A DNA stretch of 16,986 bases. Origin: a virus. The notes beneath the pieces are model-generated. The model did not search any database, had not been told where the DNA came from, and was given only the letters and a program-made list of their open reading frames with translations. The stretch spans positions 1 through 16,986 of IMG/VR virus record IMGVR_UViG_3300029070_000006; one strand, written 5' to 3'. The first letter of the stretch is position 1; each line of letters starts with the position of its first letter. Below, one piece after another: positions 1-16,986 of this stretch. Made by a program: the position numbers and the translations under genes.

Positions 1-99
1 CAGCCGTTCTGCTGTGGTGCCGACCCAGTGCAGGCCCGTGTAACGTGCATCGGATGATACGGGCCCTTGTTTCTGCAATCTTTTCCACAGGATCATGCG
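1..99. repeat. Terminal overlap, copy 1 (identical to 16888..16986)
   Basis: Read base by base; 99/99 identical. It lies inside a coding region, so it fits an assembly overlap of a circular or concatemeric molecule rather than a physical end. Confidence 0.95.
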
Positions 100-540
100 G
101 CTGGAGGCGCTGAGCTCCAACAGCCAGCCGCCGCCATGTGGCCGGGCTTCGCCGCCGTTCTGCACCAGCCCGTCGAACAATGTCGTCGCCGTGCTTGACT
201 TGTCGGAAGGGTTGCCGGGCGTGTACGCCTGGTGCAACACTGCCAAGCGCATGCGCTGCGCCGACCATGCGCCCATATCCGGGCGGAGCATGCCCCATGT
301 GGGCTGTTCTGAGATCTGCACGAGCACGCGCGCGCCGGCCAGCGTGAGCGCGCGGCCGGTGAGCCAACCGGTTGCATCGCGCAGCCGGAAGGTCATCACG
401 GACGGGTCGGGCTGCTGGTCGATGCCGTCGGTGCCCCACTGGATGCTGAAGCCGTCCAACGCGGCCACGTCGTTGTCGTGGTCGTTGACGGCAACCCAGC
501 CGTCGCCCCAGTCAAGGAACATGAAACACTGCTGCGCCAT
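1..540 (-). CDS. Minor tail protein in the Dit position, N-terminal part. The full gene is join(15898..16887,1..540), 509 aa.
   Basis: ATG at 538..540 overlaps the tape-measure TGA (540..542) by 1 nt. The frame is open to position 1 and in phase with ORF 15898..16983 (444 nt between 540 and 96). The translation starts MAQQCFMFLDWGDGWVAVNDHDNDVAALDGFSIQWGTDG. The gene lies immediately after the TMP. Confidence 0.7.
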   Translation of the reverse strand, partial: MAQQCFMFLDWGDGWVAVNDHDNDVAALDGFSIQWGTDGIDQQPDPSVMTFRLRDATGWLTGRALTLAGARVLVQISEQPTWGMLRPDMGAWSAQRMRLAVLHQAYTPGNPSDKSSTATTLFDGLVQNGGEARPHGGGWLLELSASSRMILWKRLQKQGPVSSDARYTGLHWVGTTAERL

Positions 541-2462
541 CAGTTGCCTCGCTTCCGGTCGTAGTCGCGGAGAATCTTCCTGATTTCGCGTGCCACGCCC
601 TCACGGTCCACCGGCGCGTTGAACGTGACGTTCACGACGGTGCCGCCCATGCCGGCGCCGCCGTTCACACCGGCGTCCAGGCTCAGGCCGCCCATGCGCC
701 CATTGATCCGCGAGATGGTGCGCCGAACGTCCGCGTCGAAACCGCTGCGCAAACCGCGCGCAAATCCCTGCATGATGAGACGGCCGTTATTCACGAGCAT
801 TACCGCGTCGTATTCCGGCGGGCCCTTGTGCTCCTTGATCCAGTCGCCGATACCGCTGATCCAGCCGGTCACGCTGTTCCACATGCTCTTCAGGCCGTCA
901 AGGAAACCGCTGATGATGGACGCACCGGCGTTATACAACAGGTTGCCCACGTTGCCTATCGCGCCGGTGATACGTCCCGGCAATCCCCTGAACCAGTCCA
1001 CGACGGCGTTCCACTTGTCGGTCGCGAACTGTGCGGCCGACTGGAAGAAACCGCCTATCTTGCCCGGCAACGCCTGGAAGAATCCCACGATGCCGTCCAC
1101 GCACGAGCCGAGAAACGCGGTGAACCGGCTCCACAACTGGCGGCCCGTCTCGGTCTGCGTGAAGAACCAGACGAGCGCGGCGACCAGCGCGCCTATCGCG
1201 GTGACGACGATCATGATCGGGTTCGCGTTCATGGCGACGTTCAAAGCCCATTGCGCGATCTCGGCGGCCGTTGTTGCGAAGCTGAAGCCCTGTAACGCGG
1301 ACGTCACGGCGCTTACCACACTGGCGACCTTGAACGCGGCGAAACCGCCACCGATGGCGACTAGCGCGCCCGCGATGGGTTCCGCGTTCGCGCTCACCCA
1401 GTCGCCGAACTCGGTAAGCTTGTCCGCCACCATCTTCACCACGCCGGCCGCGCCGTTGAACGCGTCGCCCACGCTCGTGCCGATGCCTCCCGCGTCGTTC
1501 AATCCCTGCAATCCGGGCGCTATCTCCGTGGCGATATTCGCGAACGCCTGACCCAACGCGGACAACGCGGAGCCCACGGCGTTCATCATGTCCTTTGCGG
1601 TCTGGAACGCTCCCGTGTCCTGCAACGCCGTGGCGAACGCCTGTATGTTGTTGGTCGCGGTGGTGGCGAACGATCCGACCGCTTCGGCCGCGCCGCCGAT
1701 GGCGTCGGTGACGGCCGGCTTTATGAGGTTGAACGCGTCCGTGAGCCCGCCGGTGACGGCGGCCTCAAGATTGCCCAACGCGCCTTCCATGGTCTGCGTC
1801 GATGTGGCGGCCTCTTTCGCCACGTCGGTCATGCCCAGGTCCATGATGGCCTTGTTGAACTCGTCGGCCGTGATCTCGCCTTTTTCCATGGCCTCGCGGA
1901 AATTGCCCGTGTACGCTCCCGCGTTCAACATGGCTTCCTGGAGCTTGCCGGCCGCGCCGGGGATGGCGTCGGTCAGCTGGTTCCAGTTCTCCGTCGTGAG
2001 CTTGCCCGCGCCTGCGGTCTGCGTCATTACCATGGCAACCGATTTGAACGTGTCGGCGTTTCCGCCGGCGACGGCGTTCAGGTTGCCCGCTGCCTCGGTC
2101 AATCCGACGTAATCCTGGATGCCGTTGGCCGCGAGCTGCGCCGTGGTGTTCTGCACGGTGGTGAGGTCGTACACGGTCTTGTCGGCGTAGTCGCGTGTGG
2201 CCTTCGTCGCGGCCTCCACGGCTCCCGTGTCGAAGCCCGCGAAATTCATTGTGCTTTTGAACTTGTCCGTGGAATCGGACATGTCCATGACGGCGCCGGT
2301 GAAGCCCTTGAGCGTGTCCCACAAGGCGGAAACGCCCTTGAGCGCGGCACCGCCCATGAACGTGCCGAACGCCGACGCTTTCGCCGTGACCTTGGAGAGC
2401 GCTTTAACGGCGTCGTCGCTGTTGCCCGTGATCCGCACGGACATGATGGCGCTTTTACCCAT
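540..2462 (-). CDS. Tail tape measure protein (640 aa)
   Basis: It is the longest ORF, Ala/Gly-rich and helical, with internal hydrophobic segments (IMIVVTAIGALVAALVWFF). It follows the G/GT chaperone pair. A GGAGGA RBS lies 10 nt upstream of the ATG. Confidence 0.85.
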   Translation of the reverse strand: MGKSAIMSVRITGNSDDAVKALSKVTAKASAFGTFMGGAALKGVSALWDTLKGFTGAVMDMSDSTDKFKSTMNFAGFDTGAVEAATKATRDYADKTVYDLTTVQNTTAQLAANGIQDYVGLTEAAGNLNAVAGGNADTFKSVAMVMTQTAGAGKLTTENWNQLTDAIPGAAGKLQEAMLNAGAYTGNFREAMEKGEITADEFNKAIMDLGMTDVAKEAATSTQTMEGALGNLEAAVTGGLTDAFNLIKPAVTDAIGGAAEAVGSFATTATNNIQAFATALQDTGAFQTAKDMMNAVGSALSALGQAFANIATEIAPGLQGLNDAGGIGTSVGDAFNGAAGVVKMVADKLTEFGDWVSANAEPIAGALVAIGGGFAAFKVASVVSAVTSALQGFSFATTAAEIAQWALNVAMNANPIMIVVTAIGALVAALVWFFTQTETGRQLWSRFTAFLGSCVDGIVGFFQALPGKIGGFFQSAAQFATDKWNAVVDWFRGLPGRITGAIGNVGNLLYNAGASIISGFLDGLKSMWNSVTGWISGIGDWIKEHKGPPEYDAVMLVNNGRLIMQGFARGLRSGFDADVRRTISRINGRMGGLSLDAGVNGGAGMGGTVVNVTFNAPVDREGVAREIRKILRDYDRKRGN

Positions 2463-2468: not shown

Positions 2469-2639
2469 CTAATCCTCCATTCGGTCCATCTCGTCTTGCA
2501 GCAGTCTTAAACCGGTGCCCCAGTCCAGTTCGTCGGCCTCGTGCCGCCATGCCCACGGCGTGCCGCCGAAGCGTGCCGCGAGCATGAACGACAGGATCCC
2601 TAACGAATCGTCGGGCCACTCGGCTAGTTCGTAGGGTTT
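2469..2639 (-). CDS. Tail assembly chaperone -1 frameshift extension (T part; predicted GT product 137 aa)
   Basis: The -1 frame after A AAC CCT reads YELAEWPDDSLGILSFMLAARFGGTPWAWRHEADELDWGTGLRLLQDEMDRMED and then stops at TAG 2469..2471. Third-position GC is high. There is no independent start with an RBS. Confidence 0.65.
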   Translation of the reverse strand, partial: KPYELAEWPDDSLGILSFMLAARFGGTPWAWRHEADELDWGTGLRLLQDEMDRMED

Positions 2640-2881
2640 TCCGGCGTCTCCACGTCGATGTCGTCCACGAGGTCAAGCCATTGTTCGTAAGGCGTGGTGG
2701 TGTTGCCGGCGTAGCGCTGCGCGAGATACGCCATGTAGTACGACTGGCGAATCTTGCTTGCTTCGCCCGGCTCCCATCCCTCTTTCTGCGCGTGTTCCTC
2801 GGCGGACGTGATGACGCGCGGCGTCAACGGTGCTTCGTCCACATGGCCGTCGGTGTAGGTGACTTTCGCGGTGCTTCGCAT
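2624..2881 (-). CDS. Tail assembly chaperone G (85 aa)
   Basis: Small acidic ORF directly upstream of the TMP, with an AAGGAG RBS. It contains the slippery heptamer near its 3-prime end. Confidence 0.7.
   Translation of the reverse strand: MRSTAKVTYTDGHVDEAPLTPRVITSAEEHAQKEGWEPGEASKIRQSYYMAYLAQRYAGNTTTPYEQWLDLVDDIDVETPENPTN
2633..2639 (-). promoter_or_regulatory. Programmed -1 ribosomal frameshift heptamer A AAC CCT (G/GT)
   Basis: Canonical X XXY YYZ in the G frame (gaA AAC CCT), with only two further sense codons before the G stop. Confidence 0.6.
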
Positions 2882-2884
2882 GGT

Positions 2885-3268
2885 TCATGCTCCTTTGATC
2901 TGGTTCATGGTCTTCTTCACGAACTGTTCGTATTCCTTCGCCCACTGGCCTTCGGTCGAGGCCACGGCGTCGTTAACGAACGTTCTCGGTTTGATGTGCC
3001 GTGCGGGCCAGCCGTAATTGATCGGTCCCGCATATGGCACGGTCTTGCGGCCGGCGCGGATGATACCGGCCTTCTGGGTCGCGCCCACGCGTATCGATCC
3101 GGCGAGTTTGCCGGTCCTTCCGCGTGGCGCGCGGGCCACCGCCTCGGGTTTGGCGATGTCGGCGGCCCGCCGGTTGACCTCCTTCAGCTCCTTCATGTCG
3201 GCGCCGGCCTTGCGCATGGTCTGTACGAAACGCTTCTGACCGACGACGTACAGGGCCTTGTCGGCCAT
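2885..3268 (-). CDS. HK97 gp10-family neck/tail-completion protein (127 aa)
   Basis: The motif APRGRTGKLAGSIRV...VPYAGPINYGWP resembles the gp10-family (P.dTG.L..SI ... Y..vE.G) signature. Confidence 0.6.
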   Translation of the reverse strand: MADKALYVVGQKRFVQTMRKAGADMKELKEVNRRAADIAKPEAVARAPRGRTGKLAGSIRVGATQKAGIIRAGRKTVPYAGPINYGWPARHIKPRTFVNDAVASTEGQWAKEYEQFVKKTMNQIKGA

Positions 3269-3269: not shown

Positions 3270-3692
3270 TCAGGCGCTCGTCGGCGTGTACGCCGACGCC
3301 TTCACGTCGGTGGCGGAAAACTCAAAATCCTTCTTGTTCTTCGTCTTCACGTCACCGCCGAACGCGATGGGCGCGATGACCACGCGCATGTCCAGCTGGA
3401 GCTTGCCGGCAGTGTTCGGCACGAACTTCGCAGCCTTCGTCTCGCCCGCGTGATTCAGGCAATACACCTGCGCGCCGTTCATGCTGTAGTCCTCGGCGAT
3501 GCTCCCCGACAGCTTCCACGACGTCGTGAGCGCGCCGCCCTCCTCGTGGCCGTCCAGGTACGTGTCGGGGTCCTCGCTCGAATTGTCCGGCGACAGTTCC
3601 ACGCTCGTGCAATCGACGTCCAGCTTGTACTGGTCGTCTGAGGAGCCGATGACCAGGCTTCCCGGTCCCAGGGTACGAATCTTGTCCGCCAT
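3270..3692 (-). CDS. Major tail (tube) protein, actinophage type (140 aa)
   Basis: The pattern LGPGSLVIG...LSGSIAEDY...KFVPN...IAPIAFGGDVKTKN..DFEFSA is typical of small actinophage tail tube proteins. An AAAGGAA RBS is present. Confidence 0.6.
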   Translation of the reverse strand: MADKIRTLGPGSLVIGSSDDQYKLDVDCTSVELSPDNSSEDPDTYLDGHEEGGALTTSWKLSGSIAEDYSMNGAQVYCLNHAGETKAAKFVPNTAGKLQLDMRVVIAPIAFGGDVKTKNKKDFEFSATDVKASAYTPTSA

Positions 3693-3709: not shown

Positions 3710-4075
3710 TTAGATTTCATTGAGTGTGATCTGGTAGGCCGCGAGCGTCGCGTCTCCACGCGTGAAGCCGACGGGCTCGGCCGATGTGACAGGCAGCGCG
3801 GACGCCACGAGCCGGTCCATCGCGGCCAGTAGCAGCGGCAGCGCGGACGCCTGCGCCCAGGGACTGCCGGCGACGAGCACGAGCCGCACCGATAGTTCGT
3901 TTTCCGCGCCCGCGTAGGGCCATGCCACTTCGGGGGGTTTGACCCATACGCAGACCTTGCCGCGTGGCGGCTTCACCTCGGTCTCGTCGATGGTGACGTG
4001 TTCCACGAGGTCGCCGCACGCGCCGGCCACCTGTTCCATGAGCGCGTCGATCTTGCCGGTGATGGTGTTTGTCAT
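3710..4075 (-). CDS. Tail terminator-like / head-tail joining protein (121 aa)
   Basis: ATGA overlap with the upstream connector gene. Size and position between the connector and tube genes fit, and the pattern is DUF3168-like (weak). Confidence 0.4.
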   Translation of the reverse strand: MTNTITGKIDALMEQVAGACGDLVEHVTIDETEVKPPRGKVCVWVKPPEVAWPYAGAENELSVRLVLVAGSPWAQASALPLLLAAMDRLVASALPVTSAEPVGFTRGDATLAAYQITLNEI

Positions 4076-4404
4076 GCGATCCCCATTCCCGCGAGCACGC
4101 CGGCGGCGCGGAGCTTCGGCCAGGCGGCGCGCAACGGGTCGGCGGAGACGCGGAACGGTTCGATGGCGTCGCTGTCCACGTTCATCACGCCGTTGCGCGC
4201 GTCCTTCTGGTTGAACAGGTCGGCGGCGACCGCCAGCACGCAATCCGACTGGATCAGGTCGGGCACCGTGTCCCACGTCTCGCCCAGGTTCGCCGACAAG
4301 TAGGCGCGAGCCGTTTTCAGGCAACCGTCGGCGCGTTTCTCGTCCTCGCTGCCGATGACGTTCATCATCGCGAGGAAATCCGCATGCAAGGCGTCTTCTT
4401 CCAT
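4072..4404 (-). CDS. gp6-like head-tail connector (110 aa)
   Basis: Pattern LKTARAYLSANLG...SDCVLAVAADLFN, AGGAGA RBS, and position downstream of the capsid module. Confidence 0.6.
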   Translation of the reverse strand: MEEDALHADFLAMMNVIGSEDEKRADGCLKTARAYLSANLGETWDTVPDLIQSDCVLAVAADLFNQKDARNGVMNVDSDAIEPFRVSADPLRAAWPKLRAAGVLAGMGIA

Positions 4405-4412: not shown

Positions 4413-4778
4413 CTATCCGTCGGTCTCGGACGTTCCGTCTGAAATGGCGGTCAGCACAGGCATGATGTCCGCGTCAACGGTGCTGCCGTTGCGGGTAATG
4501 ACACCGCAGCTGTAGGTGCCGGCCGTGGTTATCGTGAACGGTTCGGTTGAGATTGTGTTGTAGTTCTTGCCGTCAACGGTGATCTGCACATACAGGTTCT
4601 GTCTATCGGTGCCGACGCTGCCGGCCAGGCTGTATCTTCCGGGCTGCAACGTGACTTCGCTGCCGACGCCGCCCCATGCGGTGCAGGTGCCGACGGCGTG
4701 AATGACGCCTTCCGACTTGTATGTGTAGGCCACGCCGTTACGAGCGGCCGGCAGTTTCGGCAATGGATAGAGGTTCAA
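4413..4778 (-). CDS. Small beta-sandwich (CBM/decoration-like) protein 2 (121 aa; TTG start)
   Basis: The TTG at 4776..4778 is preceded by GAGGGGGGG. It appears to be a distant paralog of the upstream ORF (GVIHAVG vs GSLHLAG; QPGRYSL vs PAGTYSY). Confidence 0.5.
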   Translation of the reverse strand: MNLYPLPKLPAARNGVAYTYKSEGVIHAVGTCTAWGGVGSEVTLQPGRYSLAGSVGTDRQNLYVQITVDGKNYNTISTEPFTITTAGTYSCGVITRNGSTVDADIMPVLTAISDGTSETDG

Positions 4779-4779
4779 G

Positions 4780-5217
4780 TCAGTTCCCCCCCTCGAGGCC
4801 TGTGTTGTCCGGGCGCGTCCAGTCGGTGGCCGTGGCGCCGAGCTCGAGCTGTGCTCGCAGATCGCCGTCGATCGGATTGGTGGTCGATGCCGCGATGCGC
4901 AGTTCAAGAGTGACCGTGTCCTCCGGGATGACGCTCGGTTTGTCGGTTTCGAGTGTGGCCAGCAGGCTCAGGTTGGTGCCACGTGCCTGCAAGTACGAGT
5001 ACGTGCCGGCAGGGAATTGCGCGACCGAATAGATGACCGTCTGGCCCTTTGCTGTGTCCGGGCACTCCCACCGCCACCGAAGGCCCTTGTTGGCTGTCGG
5101 CGCGTCACCGGCCAGGTGCAGGCTGCCGTCCTCGTTCACAGTCGCCGTCAGTCCCGATCCGGAGGCCGGGCCGTAGGCGAGCAGGTTACGCGACGCTACC
5201 GGCGGGGGAGGGGTCAC
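4780..5217 (-). CDS. Beta-sandwich (CBM/decoration-like) domain ORF 1 (145 aa from GTG). Probably expressed as a -1 frameshift extension of the capsid protein.
   Basis: There is no ATG. GTG overlaps the capsid TGA (GTGA). The ORF starts with the linker-like TPPPPVAS and ends QLELGATATDWTRP, resembling the LE.G..ATDW.P ending of phage fibre/CBM domains. Confidence 0.55.
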   Translation of the reverse strand: MTPPPPVASRNLLAYGPASGSGLTATVNEDGSLHLAGDAPTANKGLRWRWECPDTAKGQTVIYSVAQFPAGTYSYLQARGTNLSLLATLETDKPSVIPEDTVTLELRIAASTTNPIDGDLRAQLELGATATDWTRPDNTGLEGGN

Positions 5218-9812: not shown

Positions 9813-9841
9813 GCCGCGCCCTTCACGGCGCGGCTTTTTTT
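9813..9841 (+). terminator. Intrinsic-terminator-like hairpin oriented for the plus strand (gccgcgcc-cttcac-ggcgcggc followed by T7)
   Basis: An 8-bp all-GC stem at 9813..9820/9827..9834 is followed by ttttttt. It lies in the HNH-terS spacer, opposite to the flanking genes. Confidence 0.55.
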
Positions 9842-9909
9842 ATTTGGGTTGGGGATACGAAATCGGTGGGCGCGGGGTGTCCCTTCAGATACGTCTCTTA
9901 AAAAACCGG

Positions 9910-10635: not shown

Positions 10636-10814
10636 TGCTGCCTCCCAAGCCACTTGTTGACATCGGCCACGCGATACACCACACGGCCCTCCAGCATCCG
10701 CCATTTCGGCCCCTTGCCCTGCTTGCGCCACATGTAGAGCGTCTGCCCGGACTTGCCTAGGAACTCGGCCAGCTCACGCGCGTACAGGAAACCACGGCCC
10801 ATCAGTGGCACCAC
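10632..10814 (-). CDS. Excisionase/AlpA-type HTH DNA-binding protein (56 aa from ATG 10802, or 60 aa from GTG 10814)
   Basis: YARELAEFLGKSGQTLYMWRKQGKGP...RVVYRVADVNKWL matches the HTH_17/excisionase pattern. The ATG at 10800..10802 overlaps the upstream TGA by 1 nt. Confidence 0.65.
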   Translation of the reverse strand: MVPLMGRGFLYARELAEFLGKSGQTLYMWRKQGKGPKWRMLEGRVVYRVADVNKWLGRQQ

Positions 10815-11131
10815 GCCTTGAACGACGCGACCACATCACGACAGTCATACGTCTTCATGCCCAGCATGCGGCCCACCGGACGGATGCCCGCGCCCTGGCG
10901 TTCGGACAGGATCAGTTGCATATCGTTATCCGCTCCCGGCGTCTTCACGCTCAATCCGATCATCGTCATGAGCTCCTGCCTGGTGATGGTCTCCGAACAC
11001 GCGCACCGCTCCTCGATGTGAGGCAACGAATACTTCACCATCGCCCTGAGCATCCTCAGTTTCGACTTGGACGCCGGCGACTGGGTGACGTTGCGTTTGC
11101 GTGTTGGTTTGTAATCGACTGCATATCCCAT
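10802..11131 (-). CDS. Hypothetical protein (109 aa), possible small DNA-binding protein
   Basis: ORF with a GAGG RBS and a possible HTH-like stretch (ITRQELMTMIGLS). No family was recognised. Confidence 0.45.
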   Translation of the reverse strand: MGYAVDYKPTRKRNVTQSPASKSKLRMLRAMVKYSLPHIEERCACSETITRQELMTMIGLSVKTPGADNDMQLILSERQGAGIRPVGRMLGMKTYDCRDVVASFKAWCH

Positions 11132-11159: not shown

Positions 11160-11553
11160 TCATTCAGAGACTTTTGGGTGGTGGGTGGTTAGAGCGGGGA
11201 GACCTAAACGCAGGCGACGAAAAAGACTCGAACAAAAGTTCGTAGTCTCTTCGTCGTCTACAGGTCTCCACGCGAGACTTTCGGTCTGGAGCCGGGCCGT
11301 CGCATTGTCGAGAGCGGGCATACGCCCGCCGTGAATGGTCCCGCCAGAGCCCCCGCAATCGCGGTACGCCGCCCTATTACGCCTTAACCGGCAAGCCCTG
11401 GTGGTAGGGAAAGCGCTCAAGACCACAGGTCAGGTTTCGTTCCGCTCGTAACGTTACGCCAGACGTCCGCAGTGGGTTAGACCCGTCAACGTGCTACCGG
11501 GTCCCTGCACATCCCCGGTCACGGCACATTCAGTTATCCAGAAAAACGAATGG
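11160..11553 (-). other. ORF-free, highly structured non-coding region (candidate ncRNA, origin or regulatory array)
   Basis: No credible ORF on either strand. It contains a 72-nt compound hairpin, a 12-bp perfect palindrome, a GC stem with a tetraloop and 5 GAGAC/GTCTC copies. Strand and function are unknown. Confidence 0.4.
11198..11269. repeat. Long compound hairpin / imperfect palindrome
   Basis: Nested pairings: ggagacct (11198..11205) with aggtctcc (11262..11269); ggcgacgaa (11213..11221) with ttcgtcgtc (11250..11258, one G-T pair); agact+cgaac (11224..11233) with gttcg+agtct (11238..11248), closing an aaaa loop. Confidence 0.75.
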
Positions 11554-11727
11554 TTATTCAGGCGGCGAAGACAACGCCGCGTAAAGCTCGTGGAACAACG
11601 ACAACGCCTCCTCGCGCGTGAACGAATAGATACGCCCGCGATCCTCGCGCCGACGCGAACGCACCAGCGGGACGATCGTCACGACCACGTACCCCTGAGC
11701 GGAGCGACTGACGGTGAACTCATACAT
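11554..11727 (-). CDS. Hypothetical small protein (57 aa)
   Basis: MYEFTVSRSAQGYVVVTIV... has high third-position GC (13/16 in the first codons). A GC hairpin (11561..11567/11575..11581) sits at its 3-prime end. Confidence 0.45.
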   Translation of the reverse strand: MYEFTVSRSAQGYVVVTIVPLVRSRRREDRGRIYSFTREEALSLFHELYAALSSPPE

Positions 11728-12293
11728 CGCGCCACCGCAGAATCCTCGCCCGGACCAGTCGAGCGATCTGACGAAGCTAGAGCTTGGAGTGCATTGGGTA
11801 TCATCTCCAACCCGTCTCCACCGGTGTCGATATACGCAATTCCCGATCTGGGGCATAGAACCAATGAAGTGCGGACCCTTTGAACGCCTGCGCAGATGGC
11901 ATAGGGACAGGCTGGGTCATCGCAGGTTCCATGCTCTCGACAGAAAACGGGCTTCAGAACAGAGAAGACTCCTGAGTTAGGAACAATCCGATACGTCCCG
12001 TCCGAAAAAACCTCAAAAGCGTCGTCGGAATCAGCCACGCCGTCGGAATCCTTACGACGAGTCCAATCATCCTTGATTTGCGGAGCAAAGCCGAACTGTG
12101 TTCTTAACTCCCAATCGTGAACGATCTTGTGGTCGTAGGGAAGCCCCACATGCTTGCGCGAGGACTCCAAAGCGTAACGACTACGCTCCACGGCCCCAGC
12201 GGCCTCGATTCGTGCCATGCGGGACCAGTAAAGCGCGGCGCAGGAAATAACCAAGGACGCAAAAGAAACACCCAACGAAACGAAGCCAAACAT
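11679..12293 (-). CDS. Hypothetical membrane-anchored protein (204 aa), low-GC insert
   Basis: N-terminal TM segment FGFVSLGVSFASLVISCAALYW and a Cys-containing C-terminal domain. The ATG overlaps the Cro-like TGA by 1 nt. The last ~16 codons overlap the 57-aa ORF, so the end is uncertain. Confidence 0.5.
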   Translation of the reverse strand: MFGFVSLGVSFASLVISCAALYWSRMARIEAAGAVERSRYALESSRKHVGLPYDHKIVHDWELRTQFGFAPQIKDDWTRRKDSDGVADSDDAFEVFSDGTYRIVPNSGVFSVLKPVFCREHGTCDDPACPYAICAGVQRVRTSLVLCPRSGIAYIDTGGDGLEMIPNALQALASSDRSTGPGEDSAVARCMSSPSVAPLRGTWS

Positions 12294-12499
12294 CACAACA
12301 CCTCCAAGGGCTCGCGGCCAAGCACGAGATCAGTGGAAACGTCGAAAAAGTCGGCTATGCGCGACACATCACGCAACGTGAAATTTGAGCGGCCATGGAA
12401 TTTGTCGCTGATGGCCTGCTCGGAGACGCCTAGCTCATGCGCCAGATCGCGCTGTGTGACGTGATTGTCTCTCATGAGTTTTCTTATCTGACTAATCAT
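12293..12499 (-). CDS. Cro-like XRE-family HTH regulator (68 aa)
   Basis: VTQRDLAHELGVSEQAISDKFHGRSNFTLRDVSRIADFF is a classic XRE HTH. It is divergent from the second HTH gene. Confidence 0.75.
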   Translation of the reverse strand: MISQIRKLMRDNHVTQRDLAHELGVSEQAISDKFHGRSNFTLRDVSRIADFFDVSTDLVLGREPLEVL

Positions 12500-12598
12500 T
12501 TAAAAACTTTCAGACTAAAGATTTGATGAAGTTCTAGACCAAAGATTAACCATATGACGTAGCCAACACGCCGAGTACTACGCTAAAACCGTAGTAAA
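12500..12598. promoter_or_regulatory. AT-rich divergent switch region with candidate operators
   Basis: Direct repeat agacYaaagatt at 12512..12523 and 12536..12547. Inverted repeat tactacg/cgtagta at 12576..12582/12590..12596. A TAAAAT -10-like hexamer at 12595..12600 lies 7 nt before ATG 12608, which could allow a leaderless start. Confidence 0.4.
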
Positions 12599-13024
12599 AT
12601 GAATTTCATGACAATGCTAGATATTCAGCCGAGCGCTACATTGCGCAGGCAGGACGTTGTTGCGATGAATACGAACATGATCTTGTCCAACAGCGGTTTA
12701 ATGAAGAAGGACCTTGCTAAGGCAATGGGACTCTCGCCGCAATCGATGGCGTCGAGGCTTCAGAGCAAGGCCGATTGGACCATTGACGAAACTTGCGCGG
12801 CGGCCGATTTCTTCGGCGTCCCGTTGATGGCTTTGCTGGATGAGAACTTAACGCCAGCAAAAGCCATGGAATATATAAAAAACCGCCGTTCCGATAATGG
12901 GAACGGCGGTCAAGTGGTAGCGGGGCATGGATTTGAACCATGGACCTCTGGTAACGTTGTTGCCCAGAGGTCCACGGTTCAAATCCATGAAGCCCGATTA
13001 TTTGATTTTATCCTAGCGGCGTAA
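12599..13024 (+). CDS. CI-like XRE-family HTH repressor candidate (up to 141 aa; start uncertain: 12599, 12608 or 12614). Its C-terminus reads through the attP core and ends ...FILAA.
   Basis: HTH MKKDLAKAMGLSPQSMASRLQSKADWTIDETCAAADFF. The ORF stays open through the tRNA-like segment to TAA 13022..13024, 18 nt before the integrase ORF. Confidence 0.65.
   Translation: MNFMTMLDIQPSATLRRQDVVAMNTNMILSNSGLMKKDLAKAMGLSPQSMASRLQSKADWTIDETCAAADFFGVPLMALLDENLTPAKAMEYIKNRRSDNGNGGQVVAGHGFEPWTSGNVVAQRSTVQIHEARLFDFILAA
12877..12910 (-). terminator. Intrinsic terminator on the minus strand, immediately 3-prime of the tRNA fragment
   Basis: An 11-bp stem accgccgttcc (12882..12892) with ggaacggcggt (12900..12910) and loop gataatg. 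On the minus strand it is followed by TTTTTT (12877..12882). Confidence 0.65.
12915..12951 (-). other. tRNA 3-prime-end fragment (variable loop, T-arm, acceptor strand, CCA): candidate attP core
   Basis: The minus strand reads CCAGAGGTC-CATGG-TTCAAAT-CCATG-CCCCGCT-A-CCA. That gives a perfect 5-bp T stem, a canonical T loop, a 7-nt acceptor strand, the discriminator and CCA. No D-arm or anticodon arm is present, so it is not a complete gene. Confidence 0.7.
12926..12989. repeat. 26-bp inverted repeat (25/26) with a 12-nt spacer. The right arm is a degenerate inverted copy of the tRNA fragment.
   Basis: catggatttgaaccatggacctctgg (12926..12951), spacer taacgttgttgc, then ccagaggtccacggttcaaatccatg (12964..12989). 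Confidence 0.85.
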
Positions 13025-13042: not shown

Positions 13043-13882
13043 ATGCCGGCCGTGAGTATGCACAAAAAGCTGCCCCCTGCTCAGTGGCGGGACGAAATCA
13101 CCCTATGGCTCGAATCGCTCACGGCGGCGGGTCTCAGTCAGGACACGATCAACACGCGGCGGTGCAAGATAGGGCACGCGGCGCGGTGCCTGGATAAATC
13201 GCCCTATGACGTGACGTCAGAGGATCTAGTGCATTGGACGGCCTCGCAGTCCTGGAAGGCGGAGACGCGCAAGGGCTATCGGAATACGCTCGTCGGTTTT
13301 TTCCGGTGGCTGCATGCCACGGGCCGGCGCGCGGACGATCCGGCGGTCGCGCTGCCGAAGGTGCGCAAGACGCGGCCGCATCCCCGCCCGTGCCCCGACG
13401 CGCACATATACGCCGCCATGTGCGCCGCGAACGATGTGGAACGGCTCATGCTGCGCCTTGGTGCCGAAGCCGGGTTGAGACTGTCCGAAATCGCGGCCGT
13501 CCACTCGCGCGACGTGCTGGAAGGCGACGCCGGCCCGTCGCTGATAGTGCGGGGCAAGGGCGACAAACAGCGCATAGTGCCCATAAGCGAAGACCTGGCG
13601 AAGCGGATAACGGCCGCGCCCGGTTGGCTGTTCCCCGGCCGGTGGCGGGGACACGTCGAAAAATCGTATGTGTCCCGCCACCTCACACGGCTGCTGCCGG
13701 ACGGTTGGGGGCCGCACTCGCTGCGCCACCGGTACGCCACGCGCATGTACGAGACCACGCACGATCTGCTGCTGGTCTCGAAGCTGCTGGGACATAGCAG
13801 CGTGGAGACCACGCAAATCTACGTGGCGATGCCGGATAGCCGGCTGCGCGTCGGCCTGGACGCGGTGACGTTGGCCGGCTAG
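13043..13882 (+). CDS. int: Tyrosine recombinase/integrase, short XerC/D-like (279 aa; alternative starts GTG 13052, ATG 13058)
   Basis: Candidate catalytic residues: GLRLSE (R), KGDKQR (K), HSLRHRYAT (H-x-x-R), LGHSSVETTQIYV (H...Y). There is a SAM-like core-binding N-terminus but no obvious arm-binding domain. Confidence 0.85.
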   Translation: MPAVSMHKKLPPAQWRDEITLWLESLTAAGLSQDTINTRRCKIGHAARCLDKSPYDVTSEDLVHWTASQSWKAETRKGYRNTLVGFFRWLHATGRRADDPAVALPKVRKTRPHPRPCPDAHIYAAMCAANDVERLMLRLGAEAGLRLSEIAAVHSRDVLEGDAGPSLIVRGKGDKQRIVPISEDLAKRITAAPGWLFPGRWRGHVEKSYVSRHLTRLLPDGWGPHSLRHRYATRMYETTHDLLLVSKLLGHSSVETTQIYVAMPDSRLRVGLDAVTLAG

Positions 13883-13897
13883 ATTATTTGCCGGCCA
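13872..13897. terminator. Hairpin at the convergent int/holin gene ends (tggccggc-N10-gccggcca)
   Basis: An 8-bp GC-rich stem encloses both stop codons. There is no clear U-tract on either strand. Confidence 0.35.
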
Positions 13898-14204
13898 TGC
13901 GTAGAGGGTTGTAGGCGACGCCGAAACCGCCGGTGAGCACGCCGCCCGCGAAGATGATGTATTCGCCGATGTCGGCGTGGCCCGCGAGGGCGACGCCTCC
14001 ACCCGCGAGTACGGCGGCGAGGCCGACGACGTAGATCACCGTTCGGATGGTCTCGCTGAACACGGGGGTGTATCCCTTGCTTGCGTCGATCTGCGCGGCG
14101 GCTTTGTGGTCGGCCACGCCTGGTGTGTTCGTGTCCGTGGTGATGGTGTTGTTCTCGGCGGCGAGCATCTGCTCGCTGGTGGGCTGTTGCATGTCGGCGC
14201 TCAT
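13884..14204 (-). CDS. Holin-like membrane protein (106 aa, two TM segments)
   Basis: TM segments VIYVVGLAAVLAGGGVALAG and YIIFAGGVLTGGFGVAY. ATGA overlap with the amidase stop. Confidence 0.6.
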   Translation of the reverse strand: MSADMQQPTSEQMLAAENNTITTDTNTPGVADHKAAAQIDASKGYTPVFSETIRTVIYVVGLAAVLAGGGVALAGHADIGEYIIFAGGVLTGGFGVAYNPLRMAGK

Positions 14205-14986
14205 TTGGCGGTGTCCTTCTCCTGTGCGGTCATGGTGATGACGAGTTTGTCGATTTTGTCGCTGACGGCCTTGGCGGTCCTGTCGGCGATGTCCTCGGGG
14301 TTGCTGCCGAGCGCCGTGGTGAGCTTGTCGATCTGCCGCTGCTGGGCCGCGACGGTTGCCTGCAGGGCAGTGACGGCTTTCTTCACGTCGCTGATACGGC
14401 CGGGCAGTTCGTAGTTGATGGCGTTGTACATGTTGCCGCCCAACGCGCTCTTGTTGTAGTTGTATCCCCATATTTCGGCTGCTGTTGCCATGTCGATGTC
14501 TCCGTATCCGTTGATTTGGTTTGCTTTGTTGATGATGTACCGCCAGTTGAGCCCGTTCGGGCACAGGTCCGGGCAGGCCGGGTGCGCGTAGGGAGGCACG
14601 TCCCGGTGCAGGAATATGTTCCTGCCGCGTTCCAGCTTGCCGAACCCGTACCGGCGGGCGATGTCCGCGCATAGGCGGGCGCTGGCGTCGAGGCATGCCT
14701 GGGTGCATGGGATGAAGTCGAGTCCGCCCTGGTGCTCGATGCTGATGGTCTGGCAGTTGCTTGTGTAGCTGCCGTCCGCCCATGCGGCATCCGTCTCGGC
14801 GACGTACTGGTGGGTCTCCCCGTTGCCGCCGATGCCGTAGGTGCTTGATGCCTGGTATGAGGCACGCTGGAAGATGTTGTCGGTGCCGGCGAGCCAGCCG
14901 GCCATGATGTGAAGGGTGATGCGTGTGACGCGGTATCCCCTTCGCCCCGCGTAGTGGTTGGGGCTGCCTATCCATGTGATGCTCAT
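14201..14986 (-). CDS. Endolysin: N-acetylmuramoyl-L-alanine amidase (Amidase_2/PGRP type) with a coiled-coil C-terminus (261 aa)
   Basis: ITLHIMAG...STYGIG..G..HQYV...AWADG...NCQTISIEH...LHRDV....CPD match Amidase_2 motifs. AAGGA RBS. The long upstream extension in the ORF track (from 15082) is rejected. Confidence 0.8.
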   Translation of the reverse strand: MSITWIGSPNHYAGRRGYRVTRITLHIMAGWLAGTDNIFQRASYQASSTYGIGGNGETHQYVAETDAAWADGSYTSNCQTISIEHQGGLDFIPCTQACLDASARLCADIARRYGFGKLERGRNIFLHRDVPPYAHPACPDLCPNGLNWRYIINKANQINGYGDIDMATAAEIWGYNYNKSALGGNMYNAINYELPGRISDVKKAVTALQATVAAQQRQIDKLTTALGSNPEDIADRTAKAVSDKIDKLVITMTAQEKDTAK

Positions 14987-14993
14987 CGCATGC

Positions 14994-15278
14994 TTATTCC
15001 TTTCCGTCGTCGTTGTCCTGGAAGAGCCCGTCGGGCGCGCTCGGTGGCGGTGGAGGCGCGCGCCGCCATATCGCGTCCACAAGTTCCCTGTTCCACAACC
15101 ACAGGAGCTGTCGGTCTCGGGCGCTTTGGTCGAGTTGGCGTTGCGCCTCGATGAGCAGGCGGCTGGCGTCGGTGTCCTTGTCGCTGCGTGTCTTCGCCCA
15201 TGTGGCCACGAACTGGACGCACGCGCCTACGGCCACGCCTCCCGTGCCGATGAGTGCGCTGATTATCGATTCGGTCAT
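14994..15278 (-). CDS. Small membrane protein (94 aa, one N-terminal TM plus coiled coil), possible lysis accessory or second holin
   Basis: MTESIISALIGTGGVAVGACVQFVATW is followed by a charged helix and a PPPPP tract. ATGA overlap with the upstream tail gene. It lies directly upstream of the amidase. Confidence 0.45.
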   Translation of the reverse strand: MTESIISALIGTGGVAVGACVQFVATWAKTRSDKDTDASRLLIEAQRQLDQSARDRQLLWLWNRELVDAIWRRAPPPPPSAPDGLFQDNDDGKE

Positions 15279-15901
15279 GCGATCGCGTAGCTCAGCGAGC
15301 AGCCGAAAAAGGCAGTACCTTGGGTGCCACCATTGTTGGTGTAGTCCATGGTGCCGTCGGCACGGACGTTGATGGTTTTCTGGTTGGCTCCGTCGCGGCC
15401 GCCGAAGCTGAAATTGAGGTCGAACAACGGCCACCATCCTTCGGGGAGCTTTCCGAAGTCGCCTTTGGCCCACGAGCCGCTGGCCGAACTTTTCCAGTCG
15501 ATTCGCAGTGTGGCGAGCTTGCCGCGCCTGTATCCCTTGATGGTGCCGTAGGTACTGTTAATAAGCATGACAGTTGAGGAATCTTCGGCGAGTATGTCGG
15601 ACACGTCGGAGATCGTCGCGATGCGCGCCCACGCGCTGCCGGTCCAGCAGTACGGTCCGTTGTTGCCTTCGGCGGGGTCGGCGGTCACGTAGCCGGCCTG
15701 TCCCGTAACGCCGGTGATGCCGGCCAACGTTTCCAAGGTGGTGGCTATGGCGGGTTTCACGCCGGCCGGGGTGTTGCGGCTGTCCACCTCGTTGAGTGCG
15801 TTCTCGAAGCCCTCGGCCATGGTCTTGAACTGGGCGGGCGCGCTTGACACGAGGTCGCCGGCCTCGATGTAGGGCAGGCCATAGATCGGTGTGGTTTTCA
15901 T
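15275..15901 (-). CDS. Minor tail protein / candidate receptor-binding protein (208 aa)
   Basis: The N-terminus MKTTPIYGLPYIEAGDL...FENALNEVD resembles conserved actinophage tail-fibre N-termini. ATGA overlap with the upstream tail gene. The upstream extension to 16366 in the ORF track is rejected. Confidence 0.6.
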   Translation of the reverse strand: MKTTPIYGLPYIEAGDLVSSAPAQFKTMAEGFENALNEVDSRNTPAGVKPAIATTLETLAGITGVTGQAGYVTADPAEGNNGPYCWTGSAWARIATISDVSDILAEDSSTVMLINSTYGTIKGYRRGKLATLRIDWKSSASGSWAKGDFGKLPEGWWPLFDLNFSFGGRDGANQKTINVRADGTMDYTNNGGTQGTAFFGCSLSYAIA

Positions 15902-16986
15902 GGTTCCTCCGTGATGGTGGTTGGTTGCTGATAGGTGTGGACGAGGGATAGTTCGGCGAGGGTGAGTGCGCATTGACTCCACGTGGCGGGCCATGCGCCC
16001 ATGCTTGCCCAGGTGGTCGCGGTCGCGGCGGCTACTGGTAGAGGCCATAATGTGACCTCGTTGCGTAGGTGGGGTTTGCCGGCAGACCATTGATAGGTAA
16101 GGGTGCCGCCGATGCTGGCCCACACGCCGCCCGCCGACGGTTTTGCGTCGTCTCCGGTGAGCCGTGAGGTGATGTCTCCTTGGATGACGAGCGGTCCGCT
16201 GCTGGCGGTGAGGTAGAGGCGTGCGTGTATGGCGGGGTCGAGCCGCCGGCTGTCGAACACGATGGTGTCCGAGCGCAGTCGCCGGTCCATCGCGACGAGC
16301 AGTTGGGCGAATGTCTCCCGCTCGTCGGACGATGGCGTCCACACGGTGCCGGAGGCCCTGCCCCATACGCCCTCGGACGTGTCGGCGGAGACCACGTCCG
16401 ATTCCACGGTGATGCTGGATTGGGTGATGGTCAGGTTGGCCGGCAGCAGGCCAAGGGCGGTGAGCTCGGTCTCATGCTCGTCGAATTCCAGTGCGCCGTC
16501 GTTGGATTTCGCGTTTTTGCCCTGGATGGTGAATTGGGTGACTGGTTCGGGGATGACGATGGTCTGCTCGTCGTCGGTGATGATGTCGGTGGCGTCGAGG
16601 CCGTCCAGCGTCTCTCCGGTCCAATCGGTCACGGTGAGTCGGGCTGTGTCGTCGATGCCGATGCTTGCGGGAGCGCCGAACGGCATGTAGTCGATGCGAC
16701 TCGCGTCACGGTCGGGGTATTCGTACCATATCGGCCACATTCTGGAGTGAGCGTAGGTGCGGTGGAGCAGGTCGAGTTGCGATGGACAATCGTCGGTCCG
16801 GTAGGGTGCCACGGATGCGGTGGTGTCGAGGCCGTTGACGTTGGCCTGTGGCGCGTCCGCCTCCTTGGCGCGTCGGTTGAGCTCCGTCAGCCGTTCTGCT
16901 GTGGTGCCGACCCAGTGCAGGCCCGTGTAACGTGCATCGGATGATACGGGCCCTTGTTTCTGCAATCTTTTCCACAGGATCATGCG
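15898..16986 (-). CDS. Minor tail protein in the Dit position, C-terminal part (continues from 1..540 across the junction)
   Basis: Same frame as 1..540 through the 99-nt overlap. The apparent ATG at 16983 is internal (equivalent to position 96). Confidence 0.7.
   Translation of the reverse strand, partial: RMILWKRLQKQGPVSSDARYTGLHWVGTTAERLTELNRRAKEADAPQANVNGLDTTASVAPYRTDDCPSQLDLLHRTYAHSRMWPIWYEYPDRDASRIDYMPFGAPASIGIDDTARLTVTDWTGETLDGLDATDIITDDEQTIVIPEPVTQFTIQGKNAKSNDGALEFDEHETELTALGLLPANLTITQSSITVESDVVSADTSEGVWGRASGTVWTPSSDERETFAQLLVAMDRRLRSDTIVFDSRRLDPAIHARLYLTASSGPLVIQGDITSRLTGDDAKPSAGGVWASIGGTLTYQWSAGKPHLRNEVTLWPLPVAAATATTWASMGAWPATWSQCALTLAELSLVHTYQQPTTITEEP
16888..16986. repeat. Terminal overlap, copy 2 (identical to 1..99)
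   Basis: Same 99-nt string as 1..99. Confidence 0.95.

Follow-up and report, generated by a model that had tools for sequence, protein, structure and literature searches.

The 16,986-nucleotide stretch of DNA analyzed here (the window) is, with a probability of roughly 0.88, the complete genome of a temperate siphovirus from human-gut Bifidobacterium. By its att core, integration site and size it belongs to an already described group of small Bifidobacterium prophages. It carries a covarying, structured non-coding element that is previously undescribed and new in this analysis.

Genome Unit and Gene Content

Bases 1–99 and 16888–16986 are terminal direct repeats with 100% identity, an assembly overlap that closes the circle and leaves a non-redundant unit of 16,887 bp. 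The repeat is located within the gene for a 509-aa minor tail protein and, since this open reading frame is continuous through the junction, represents an arbitrary break point of the assembly. Both the identical ends and the tail gene running through the junction bear out the original prediction of a closed tailed-phage genome of about 16.9 kb. That prediction was also right in the content of lysogeny, packaging, head, tail and lysis genes, but not in their number, which is about 25 rather than about 27. Of these, 23 are on the minus strand, and the repressor and integrase genes are on the plus strand. The functions assigned via Pfam and PHROG are a lysogeny switch, packaging, a head module with a protease-capsid fusion, tail and lysis; the packaging, structural and lysis genes occupy about 13.5 kb of the 16,887-bp unit.

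The packaging module includes a 241-aa fusion of an HNH endonuclease with an AAA_33 P-loop kinase-like domain (9910..10635, minus strand; PF01844, PF13671; PHROG 4581, E = 7e-21), which is 34% identical to gp27 of the Gordonia phage McGonagall. Between the HNH and the terminase genes (9747..9909) a cos region is predicted from synteny, the genome ends of McGonagall and of the Microbacterium phage Quaker falling between the HNH gene and gene 1. Also on the minus strand are the genes for a 104-aa protein in the small-terminase position (9432..9746), assigned by synteny, 95% conserved in relatives and without a family match; for the terminase large subunit (7984..9435; PHROG 9, E = 1e-37); for the portal protein (6776..7897; PF04860, E = 7.5e-73); and for a 521-aa prohead protease-(scaffold)-major capsid fusion (5214..6779; PF04586 and PF25209, PHROG 2263), with Peptidase_S78 at residues 13–162 and Phage_capsid_4 at residues 266–510. 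Two small genes for proteins of 145 and 121 aa (4413..5217, minus strand; PHROG 35081 and 35108) lie in a segment that has no DNA-level alignment to any relative.

The minus strand further encodes head-to-tail connectors of 110 and 121 aa (3710..4404; synteny with gp6 and gp7 of Quaker), the major tail protein (3270..3692; PHROG 4574, E = 8e-23), an HK97 gp10-like neck or tail completion protein of 127 aa together with a putative tail assembly chaperone of 85 aa (2624..3268; PHROG 5, in a position corresponding to gp9–11 of Quaker), a 640-aa tape measure protein (540..2462; PHROG 58, E = 2e-53), the 509-aa minor tail protein whose gene crosses the junction (5′ part 1..540, 3′ part 15898..16887), a 208-aa minor tail protein (15275..15901; PHROG 36485, E = 1e-46) and a lysis cassette consisting of a 94-aa membrane protein, a 261-aa Amidase_2 endolysin and a 106-aa holin-like protein (13884..15278; PF01510, E = 6e-18). 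A tRNA-Gly called by ARAGORN at 8077–8171 is regarded as a false positive, being 95 nt long, inside the terminase reading frame and without an Rfam tRNA match.

Small size, an integrase and the lack of replication genes would also be expected of a PICI-like phage satellite relying on a helper phage. Such a satellite is extremely unlikely, however: the genes for terminase, portal, capsid, tape measure, tail, tail tip and lysis are all present, and isolated relatives of the same size (clusters EE and CW, see below) plaque unaided.

Integration Site and Immunity Switch

Lysogeny would be established by integration-dependent immunity, in which attP lies within the repressor gene. The immunity repressor, an XRE-type HTH protein of 119 aa in its viral form (12665..13024, plus strand; PHROG 4583, E = 2e-10), has an alternative start at 12599, which would yield 141 aa. 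Beside it are encoded a tyrosine integrase of 279 aa ending in TLAG (13043..13882, plus strand; PF00589, E = 1.5e-20; PHROG 1) and a Cro-like HTH_3 regulator of 68 aa (12293..12499, minus strand; PF01381, E = 3e-10), in agreement with the integrase and repressor switch that had been claimed. The intergenic region between repressor and cro contains two direct repeats of 19 nt (12505..12547), which are probably operators.

The attP core (12915..12951, minus strand) corresponds to the 3′ end of a host tRNA-Met and is inside the repressor reading frame. It reads TGGTAGCGGGGCATGGATTTGAACCATGGACCTCTGG in the window and is identical to the core TGGTAGCGGGGCATGGATTTGAACCATGGACCTCTGGGT published for the prophages Bb423phi2 and 689b-1 (PMC6109161, Table 3). 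An inverted repeat with 26-nt arms that are 96% complementary (12926..12989), one arm being the T-arm of the att core, probably holds core-binding sites of the integrase or forms a hairpin.

Because attP is within the 3′ end of the repressor reading frame, integration shortens the encoded protein from 119 to 97 aa. The viral form terminates in ARLFDFILAA, the LAA end of which is, by resemblance, an ssrA-like tag. The first 96 residues are identical to those encoded at 3822–4115 of a 72-kb host-anchored contig (L001), beyond which the viral and the 97-aa prophage forms diverge. The free phage would make the longer, LAA-tagged repressor, which integration would truncate. In systems of this type, ClpXP reportedly degrades the longer, inactive viral repressor, and the truncated form confers immunity. 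Such immunity has reportedly been found in the mycobacteriophages BPs, Brujita and Charlie (Broussard et al., 2013, Mol Cell, as cited in PMC6109161), with which the window shares an attP in the 3′ end of the repressor gene, an adjoining tyrosine integrase gene and a longer viral repressor with an ssrA-like tag, although its genome is only about a third of the size of theirs.

In L001, metA (HTS) is found at 2539–3573 and tRNA-Met at 3789–3865, the match to the phage beginning at 3829; the neighbors of this integration site are metA and the ATP synthase operon. In two further contigs (L002 and L097) the phage match stops at the att core and is followed by host DNA. The integrated form that the original prediction had proposed to look for at the tRNA core therefore exists in all three and, as these integrated copies are bounded by host tRNA-Met and host DNA, the window represents a whole element rather than a fragment of a larger prophage. 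The attP junction of the window is the exact recombination product of attL and attR and is present in L001 too.

Relationship to Known Bifidobacterium Prophages

The host genus was found through the metA neighbor, whose relatives are from Bifidobacterium. Scanning GTDB genomes with only the capsid fusion as query gave no match, and the BLASTn comparison that had been proposed, run as a whole-genome megablast against GenBank phages, returned only a 346-bp match in the tape measure gene. In DNA comparisons, segments of the window share 82–99% identity with 16 contigs of IMG/VR. Among these is L097, a 17.9-kb provirus in the isolate genome with IMG taxon number 637000031, whose identity to the window is 82–97% over about 12 kb and in the structural genes. 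The early region (from cro to the gene of the 109-aa protein) and positions 4377–5228, in contrast, cannot be aligned with genomes of the L097 type. The exact integrase and HNH proteins are deposited at NCBI under B. longum and B. adolescentis, and IMG/VR contains 300 relatives of the HNH-kinase fusion as well as many contigs of 16–19 kb.

The described group comprises the prophages Bl-1 (B. longum NCC2705), 689b-1 and Bb423phi2 (B. breve) of approximately 18 kb, which integrate at tRNA-Met beside metA and use integration-dependent immunity (Mavrich et al., 2018, Sci Rep 8:12772; PMC6109161). The window has in common with them the host genus, the tRNA-Met 3′ end beside metA and the att core, a similar size (approximately 17–18 kb) taken up mostly by structural genes, an integrase at one end and a repressor at the other with attP in the repressor gene, and a viral repressor with an ssrA-like tag. 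It differs from the Bl-1-type group in that the 8-bp inversion site published for the latter, CAGGGTTA, was looked for and is absent. Moreover, the window represents the circular attP form; Mavrich et al. had this form only as an in silico reconstruction.

The possibility that the window derives from a cryptic or defective prophage, its circular contig being assembled from tandem or repeated copies that replicate only with the chromosome, has to be considered at this point. Bl-1 and 689b-1 were initially classed as cryptic owing to their size, and Bb423phi2 showed neither excision nor a rise in copy number after mitomycin C (PMC6109161). Moreover, the path through L001, attL-phage-attP-phage, runs through more than one copy, and tandem prophages rather than free circles could explain both this path and the closure. 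However, a lack of response to mitomycin C is typical of phages with integration-dependent immunity (PMC6109161), all of the approximately 25 genes are intact with a high G+C content at third positions, and the family is mosaic and widespread, which fits horizontal spread rather than vertical decay. Also, an attP junction needs integrase activity or free circles. A defective prophage is therefore considered very unlikely, and the window is read in the following as the genome of a temperate phage.

Relationship to Other Small Actinophages

The window fits the small-genome actinophages (clusters CW, DM, AN, AX, FE and EE, and RRH1), which are siphoviruses with genomes of less than 20 kb, a protease-scaffold-capsid fusion and few or no DNA replication genes, and shares with them the position of the HNH nuclease gene next to the terminase; it has been noted that such phages do without many non-structural genes and that all of them carry the capsid fusion (PMC7302621). 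Among them is Gordonia cluster CW (McGonagall, Jeanie, GMA5, GRU3), with temperate phages of 17.1–17.7 kb (Pope et al., 2017, mBio 8:e01069-17), and for clusters CW and DM, both temperate with genomes of about 17 kb, integration-dependent immunity has been reported (PMC5559632; bioRxiv 10.1101/2022.02.05.479200). The original prediction had held a temperate phage of this size to be unusual, which does not agree with the published temperate phages of 17–18 kb in clusters CW and DM and in the Bl-1/689b-1/Bb423phi2 group.

Cluster CW and the window share the order small gene, TerL, portal, capsid-protease fusion and tail, continued by the oppositely oriented integrase and repressor genes and the small early genes, with the HNH-kinase as the rightmost gene. 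They also share integration-dependent immunity at a tRNA gene. The proteins of McGonagall and the window are 42% (integrase), 33% (TerL), 34% (HNH-kinase) and 35% (major tail protein) identical, whereas similarity at the nucleotide level is absent. The integration site is tRNA-Lys in CW phages and tRNA-Met in the window, and the host orders differ. McGonagall also has an exonuclease of the DnaQ/RNase_T type (gp26) that the window lacks, and its endolysin gene is found among the head genes.

The phages of cluster EE (Microbacterium; Orlajensenviridae, e.g., Quaker) have genomes of about 17.4 kb and are lytic. In tblastn the capsid fusion of the window matched 140 cluster EE fusion genes. The fusion is 32% and the portal protein 42% identical, and in both cases an HTH_17 gene followed by the HNH gene is found at the genome end, with a non-coding gap of about 0.5 kb upstream and without replication genes. 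Unlike the window, EE phages have no integrase and no repressor, their HNH protein is without the kinase domain, and the structured element is undetectable in them by covariance models. With protein identities of only 32–42% to CW and EE phages, the comparison suggests that the window would form a cluster of its own under the PhagesDB rule, which requires a gene-content similarity of at least 35%.

The Search for Replication Genes

No primase, helicase, polymerase, Rep initiator, general recombinase or single-strand binding protein was found in searches with Pfam, PHROGs, PADLOC and PDB profiles, nor with AlphaFold/Foldseek in the case of the 109-aa protein, so that the original prediction of a genome without a recognizable replication gene stands. 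These negative profile searches leave room for an initiator of a novel kind.

The genes between cro and the HNH fusion are on the minus strand. A 204-aa protein in an accessory slot (11679..12293) combines a membrane helix at its N-terminus with a Cys-rich domain, matched no known family in profile searches and gave a poor AlphaFold model (pLDDT 51). Its profile match to TAL effectors (E = 4e-6) was rejected, as no single stretch reaches the threshold and the score comes from a repeated ..LPVLCQAHG.. motif. A 57-aa protein (11554..11727) is conserved in the closest relatives only. The 56-aa DNA-binding protein encoded at 10632..10802 has the HTH_17 domain of the MerR/excisionase type (PF12728, E = 3e-9) and is the product of the Xis-like gene that had been proposed. 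Its assignment as excisionase is uncertain, however, because its positional counterpart is found directly upstream of the HNH gene in the lytic cluster EE phages (Quaker), which have no integrase. The P-loop of the HNH fusion had also been named as a candidate for replication. A helicase or replication function was rejected for this domain, which is about 130 aa long, of the AAA_33 kinase type, homologous to the annotated polynucleotide kinase of McGonagall and situated in the packaging module. McGonagall gp26, annotated as "DNA polymerase III subunit," is no more than an exonuclease domain of the RNase_T/DnaQ type, without a homolog in the window.

There remains the 109-aa protein, p109 (10802..11131, minus strand), likewise put forward originally. 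AlphaFold predicts a helix plus a winged-helix-like fold (pLDDT 79), a model resembling a small DNA-binding protein of the winged-helix type. Proteins of this small winged-helix type account for many initiators of phages and plasmids. One could imagine that p109 or the HTH_17 protein is an initiator of a novel kind, which binds DNA at or near the non-coding block and brings in helicase and primase from the host. Indeed, the p109 family is kept in all lineages and is always encoded directly downstream of the conserved element. However, p109 matches no initiator in sequence or fold (a Foldseek search yielded nothing below E = 0.5), the block and its surroundings are free of iterons and repeated binding sites, and p109 is the first in a run of genes continuing to HTH_17, HNH and terminase, which suggests a late or packaging role. 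We therefore regard an initiator function as rather unlikely.

A Structured Non-coding Element

The region upstream of p109, already recognized as a non-coding block at about 11160..11553, has no open reading frame between 11132 and 11553 that holds up in its relatives. The lengths of its indels are not divisible by three, with examples of 5 and 8 nt among close relatives, and changes are concentrated in hairpin stems; a coding reading was rejected on these grounds. Within it is a conserved structured element (11164..11540, minus strand), whose 3′ domain (11171–11368) is supported by a covariance model. Although folding energy alone is indecisive as to the strand, one-sided changes from G:C to G:U and from A:U to G:U in an alignment of 48 sequences favor the sense strand. 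The block behaves as a structured RNA, and we consider it probable that the element represents a new structured RNA family whatever its role, e.g., that of a late-operon leader or an antiterminator. Searches of Rfam were negative, both for the window (E ≤ 1) and for McGonagall and five diverse members (E ≤ 0.1).

The presence of the element was established in 71 related loci, in each case ahead of a member of the p109 gene family. Among the loci with sufficient upstream sequence it is missing from only one (L264). In L264, a Prim-Pol primase and a P-loop protein are encoded upstream of the HNH gene, and it should be noted that this locus differs from its relatives over the whole early region and not only in the element. 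The Prim-Pol gene means that the phage family is not uniformly without replication genes.

Outside Bifidobacterium, the covariance models R1 and R2 gave no significant match in Quaker or McGonagall, and a loose two-anchor DNA pattern run over IMG/VR gave chance matches only. Homology there rests on a nhmmer match (E = 5e-4) to McGonagall 15250–15560 together with a composite motif (0/200 shuffles), and this segment may hold a homolog. The element family is certain for Bifidobacterium phages and possible for Gordonia cluster CW phages.

Proposed Mode of Replication

Since the genome has no recognizable replication protein, it would be copied by the host replisome after excision, from a putative origin. 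The non-coding block, the third of the original candidates, does not look like a classical origin: DnaA-box-like sites are at chance level (11 found versus 7.4 expected), there are no iterons, and the G+C content is about 0.58–0.60 without an AT-rich tract.

It is conceivable that the element acts in replication as an RNA, the sense transcript priming synthesis or opening an origin by analogy with ColE1 RNA II. Such an RNA would need host enzymes only, as would suit a phage without a replication protein; no other non-coding sequence in the early region is as conserved as the element, covariation and G:U patterns favor the sense strand, and the sole locus lacking it carries Prim-Pol and the P-loop protein instead. 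But this exchange of a primase for the element is a single case in a locus differing throughout its early region, the 3′ tail of the element is C-rich where a G-rich one would be expected for a stable RNA-DNA hybrid, and the inner hairpin and the position ahead of a long gene run fit a terminator/antiterminator leader equally well. A function as replication determinant is therefore quite unlikely, and it is hardly probable that an RNA family common to small actinophages would supply the replication start in cis and be replaced by Prim-Pol in L264. With copying by the host replisome as the preferred reading, the element and p109, which form the most conserved early unit, would be the best candidates for a function in cis and in trans, which could lie at the boundary between early and late transcription or at the start of replication.

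Biological Implications

The small tRNA-Met prophages of Bifidobacterium are among the commonest mobile elements of a genus that is central to the infant and adult gut. Formerly regarded as cryptic, they have yet to be observed excising in culture; the attP junctions in the window and in L001, both from natural gut samples, speak for recombination of these prophages in vivo. How a tailed dsDNA phage without initiator, helicase, primase or polymerase is copied is a question that spans the lineage of small-genome actinophages, and the element together with its natural primase-bearing variant offers a testable handle on replication or on late-gene control.

Genome Closure and Gene Content

The terminal 99 bases at both ends of the window are identical, which gives a unit of 16,887 bp, and the 509-aa minor tail gene spans the break point of the assembly with its reading frame continuing through the junction. 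The assembly path is therefore circular and was cut at an arbitrary position, and the genome is closed, as the original prediction had it. Counting genes by third-position G+C, ribosome-binding sites and the stored gene calls of identical contigs, we arrive at about 25 instead of the about 27 of the original prediction, 23 on the minus strand and two, repressor and integrase, on the plus strand; genes for lysogeny, packaging, head, tail and lysis were confirmed with Pfam and PHROG, from which the following assignments are taken. The plus strand encodes an XRE-type repressor (12665–13024) and a tyrosine integrase (13043–13882). On the minus strand are found a Cro-like HTH protein (12293–12499), an HTH_17 protein (10632–10802), a 241-aa fusion of HNH and AAA_33 P-loop domains (HNH-kinase; 9910–10635), the terminase large subunit (TerL), the portal, a 521-aa prohead protease/major capsid fusion, connector genes, the major tail protein, the tape measure, two minor tail proteins, an Amidase_2 endolysin and small membrane proteins. 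Judged from these assignments, the virion and lysis gene set is complete. A 95-nt tRNA-Gly called by ARAGORN within the TerL ORF (8077–8171, minus strand) has no tRNA match in Rfam and is most likely a false positive.

The segment 4377–5228, which separates the capsid gene from the head-tail adaptor, carries a 145-aa and a 121-aa gene and gave no DNA-level alignment to any of 16 relatives, which elsewhere are 82–99% identical. An invertible locus of ~500 bp has been described among the structural genes of the tRNA-Met bifidoprophage group (Mavrich et al., 2018; PMC6109161); the 8-bp inversion site of these authors, CAGGGTTA, is absent from the window.

Kinship with Temperate Small-Genome Actinophages

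The att core of the Bifidobacterium breve prophages Bb423phi2 and 689b-1 (18.2 kb) and of the B. longum prophage Bl-1 is TGGTAGCGGGGCATGGATTTGAACCATGGACCTCTGGGT (Mavrich et al., 2018), and the same sequence is present in the window at 12915–12951. These bifidoprophages, for which integration-dependent immunity was proposed, have been related to the small phages RRH1, Arthrobacter cluster AN and the temperate Gordonia cluster CW (Mavrich et al., 2018). For the cluster CW phages (17.1–17.7 kb), a temperate lifestyle, turbid plaques and integration-dependent immunity at a tRNA gene have been described (Pope et al., 2017; PMC5559632), and a preprint of 2022 adds cluster DM to the temperate small phages (bioRxiv 10.1101/2022.02.05.479200). 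The original premise, according to which phages of this size are lytic and a temperate one would stand out, is therefore incorrect. A protease-scaffold-capsid fusion is common to all small-genome actinophages, in which many non-structural genes are missing (Jacobs-Sera et al., 2020; PMC7302621). The gene order of the window is identical to that of the cluster CW phage McGonagall, with 42% identity for the integrase, 33% for TerL, 34% for the HNH-kinase and 35% for the major tail protein; to the lytic Microbacterium cluster EE the identities are 32% (capsid fusion) and 42% (portal). The window adds a new mosaic genome to a kind already published, the tRNA-Met bifidoprophages among the small-genome actinophages, and it has integration-dependent immunity.

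The comparison also bears on the gene previously described as Xis-like. It does belong to the HTH_17 family, but its role as excisionase is doubtful: the cluster EE phage Quaker, which is lytic and has no integrase, carries an HTH_17/MerR gene (16862–17080) directly before its HNH gene, as does the window. The gene may therefore not encode an excisionase and may rather encode a packaging or regulatory DNA-binding protein. The genome ends of Quaker and McGonagall fall between the HNH gene and gene 1; by synteny with both, cos would be located next to the HNH gene, at about 9747–9909.

Integrated Form, Host and attP Junction

An exact look-up of the capsid fusion protein led to the same phage integrated in a host-anchored 72-kb contig (L001), in which similarity to the window begins within a tRNA-Met gene 250 bp from the metA (homoserine O-succinyltransferase) gene and the ATP synthase operon. 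In another assembly (L002), which is independent of the first, the sequence stops 44 nt beyond the att core; this short piece of host DNA is identical to what flanks a 17.9-kb provirus taken from an isolate genome (L097). The integrated form flanked by the tRNA core, for which a search had been proposed, is hence available, and its boundaries match the 16.9-kb unit. The genome is therefore complete, and the alternative that had been considered, a fragment of some larger prophage, does not apply. Integration at tRNA-Met by the predicted tyrosine integrase, with attP within the repressor gene, can be read from the same contigs. The nearest relatives of metA of L001 are all from Bifidobacterium, and the integrase and the HNH protein of the window have identical counterparts at NCBI under B. 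longum and B. adolescentis.

At 3789–21566 of L001 (ERZ1741926 NODE_71) the order, anchored in host DNA, is attL, the whole phage, attP and a second phage copy; the contig (72,193 bp) by arithmetic ends about 10 bases past two full copies. The attP junction is identical to that of the window, which indicates that attP-spanning reads occur in the natural sample. Their source could be free circles, concatemers or tandem lysogens, and the arrangement in L001 is either a tandem lysogen or an assembly path via excised circles.

Immunity Region

The 3′ end of the repressor ORF contains the att core. In the free phage the repressor has 119 aa and the C-terminus ...FILAA; in the integrated form of L001 it has 97 aa, of which the first 96 are identical to the free-phage form. 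The predicted proteins thus show two forms of the repressor, viral and prophage, and by its sequence the repressor/cro region is divergent, with two 19-nt repeats. The predicted arrangement is exactly that of the proposed integration-dependent immunity, in which the viral repressor would be unstable in a tag-dependent manner. Induction by mitomycin C would not be expected for phages with such immunity.

A 26-nt inverted repeat (12926–12951/12964–12989; arms 96% complementary) sits in the portion of the repressor ORF that is lost upon integration. The att core, which derives from the tRNA, makes up one arm; the second, carried by the phage, is an inverted copy of the tRNA T-arm.

Search for Replication Proteins

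No replication module was recognized with Pfam, PHROGs, PADLOC, profile searches against PDB sequences or, for the 109-aa protein, Foldseek. Its lack, as stated in the original prediction, is confirmed within the reach of these tools. It is a shared, published trait of the lineage and not a peculiarity of the window, and copying would be carried out by the host replisome. Specifically, the 204-, 109-, 104- and 57-aa proteins have no match in Pfam, PHROGs or PADLOC, and the PDB profile searches returned nothing credible. The homologs of the 204-aa protein (29 clusters) and of the 109-aa protein (12 clusters) form small unannotated families limited to these phages.

Of the candidates proposed for a hidden replication function, the P-loop domain of the HNH fusion drops out: it is of the AAA_33 kinase type rather than a helicase, has ~130 aa, adjoins the terminase genes and is homologous to a McGonagall protein annotated as polynucleotide kinase. 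The AlphaFold model of the 109-aa protein (pLDDT 79) consists of a long helix and a subsequent strand-helix-helix-hairpin unit, as modeled a winged-helix-like arrangement, and its C-terminus is similar to the neighboring HTH_17 proteins; a Foldseek search gave no match better than E = 0.5.

The 204-aa protein (11679–12293) combines a membrane helix at the N-terminus with a Cys-rich domain, and its AlphaFold model is too poor to use; a match of its profile to TAL effectors stems from a repeated motif and is an artefact. The slot after cro is occupied in relatives (e.g., L097 874–1479) by unrelated ~200-aa proteins with N-terminal membrane helices, often encoded on the opposite strand, which is that of the repressor. 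The position would be typical of an accessory or exclusion slot, and the ~200-aa proteins are candidates for exclusion/defence genes expressed from the prophage. The "DNA polymerase III subunit" of McGonagall is no more than a DnaQ/RNase_T exonuclease domain, a feature of that phage without counterpart in the window.

A Conserved Structured Element

The non-coding block upstream of the 109-aa gene, another of the candidates, does not look like a classical replication origin: DnaA-box-like sites are at chance level, iterons are absent and the block is not AT-rich. It is the best conserved DNA of the early region, with a mean column identity of 92% among three relatives whose flanking proteins are just 55–72% identical, and the indels among them (5 and 8 nt) are confined to hairpins. 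Homologous blocks in two more divergent lineages are again positioned just upstream of the 109-aa gene family. In an alignment of 10 sequences, both partners have changed in 18 of 66 predicted pairs, as compared to 9.0 ± 2.0 in column shuffles (0 of 500 reached the observed value).

With an HNH-kinase profile 300 relatives were retrieved from IMG/VR and 80 kept; many lie on contigs of 16–19 kb. A covariance model of the 3′ domain (11171–11368, minus strand) found a match in 71 of the 83 sources searched, in every case on the strand of the HNH gene and 0.6–1.1 kb upstream of it. For 48 distinct sequences, both-side changes were found in 15 of 22 pairs (shuffled 10.2 ± 1.3; 0 of 500) with a covariation score of 0.313 versus 0.03–0.10 when partners were slid, in an alignment that was fitted to the covariance model and thus favors the structure. 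Despite this, the main helices are convincing, given the slid controls and the visible swaps. For example, the long-range helix reads by lineage GGAGACC/GGTCTCC, GGGAACC/GGGTTCC, CAAGACC/GGTCTTG or GGTGTCC/GGGCACC. One-sided changes from G:C to G:U and from A:U to G:U, which on the other strand would be A:C mismatches, are frequent and suggest an RNA with the same orientation as the phage genes; from folding energy alone the strand could not be decided.

The element (~380 nt) is located at 11164–11540 (minus strand) of the window, at 2030–2425 of L097 and at 8338–8688 of a related contig (L021), as well as at the 71 loci found by covariance model. From 5′ to 3′ it is composed of a variable hairpin, the conserved sequence GGGACCATTCNCGGC, a covarying hairpin, the conserved sequence ...ATGCGACGGCCNGGCTCCANACCGAAAG, a long-range helix around a long variable hairpin, and a conserved unpaired tail ...CACCACCC(A/G)AA(A/G)G, after which follows the ribosome-binding site of the 109-aa gene. 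Neither the window nor five diverse members gave a family match in Rfam. The element is conserved throughout one large family of small Bifidobacterium phages, in each case upstream of a gene from the 109-aa family, and may represent a new RNA family. Two conserved unpaired motifs (11167–11205 and 11274–11290), ...CCGAAAG and ...CCCAAAAG, vary in parallel by lineage (CGAAGC with CCGAAGG; CCGAAAT with CCGAAAT; CGTAAAT with CCATAAA), a pattern that resembles a duplicated recognition site or two alternative partners for a third strand.

Outside the group, nhmmer matches the Bifidobacterium element to a region of McGonagall between gp24 and gp26 (15250–15560; E = 5e-4), in which the composite motif GGCTCCNNNCCG-N50-80-CCACCACCC occurs once versus 0 of 200 shuffles and the motifs GGCTCCAGACCG and CCCACCACCC enclose a hairpin. 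The covariance models reach neither McGonagall nor Quaker, and the region is therefore only tentatively a remote homolog. It is partly annotated as the 50-aa gp25, which suggests that gp25 may not be a gene. From a further IMG/VR contig, L264 (IMGVR_UViG_3300045596_000030; 44% identity to the window in TerL, 48% in the portal and 41% in the capsid fusion), the element is absent with search filters off and 4 kb of upstream sequence present. Upstream of its HNH-kinase gene, on the opposite strand (464–3164), L264 encodes a Prim-Pol primase (PF09250 at E = 2e-20; PHROG 1156 at E = 4e-38) and a 516-aa P-loop protein. L264 is one example only, with an early region that differs throughout from that of the window; it shows that within the family a recognizable replication module can be located in this genome region.

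Possible Role and Significance

The structured element could mark the boundary between early and late transcription or act as a leader, or it could be a start of replication that acts in cis, possibly together with the 109-aa putative DNA-binding protein. We consider a transcriptional or leader role somewhat more likely than one in replication. The question of how these phages replicate is legitimate, but it is a known gap across the whole small-genome actinophage lineage. What the present work adds is the evidence for attP from natural samples and the conserved structured element.
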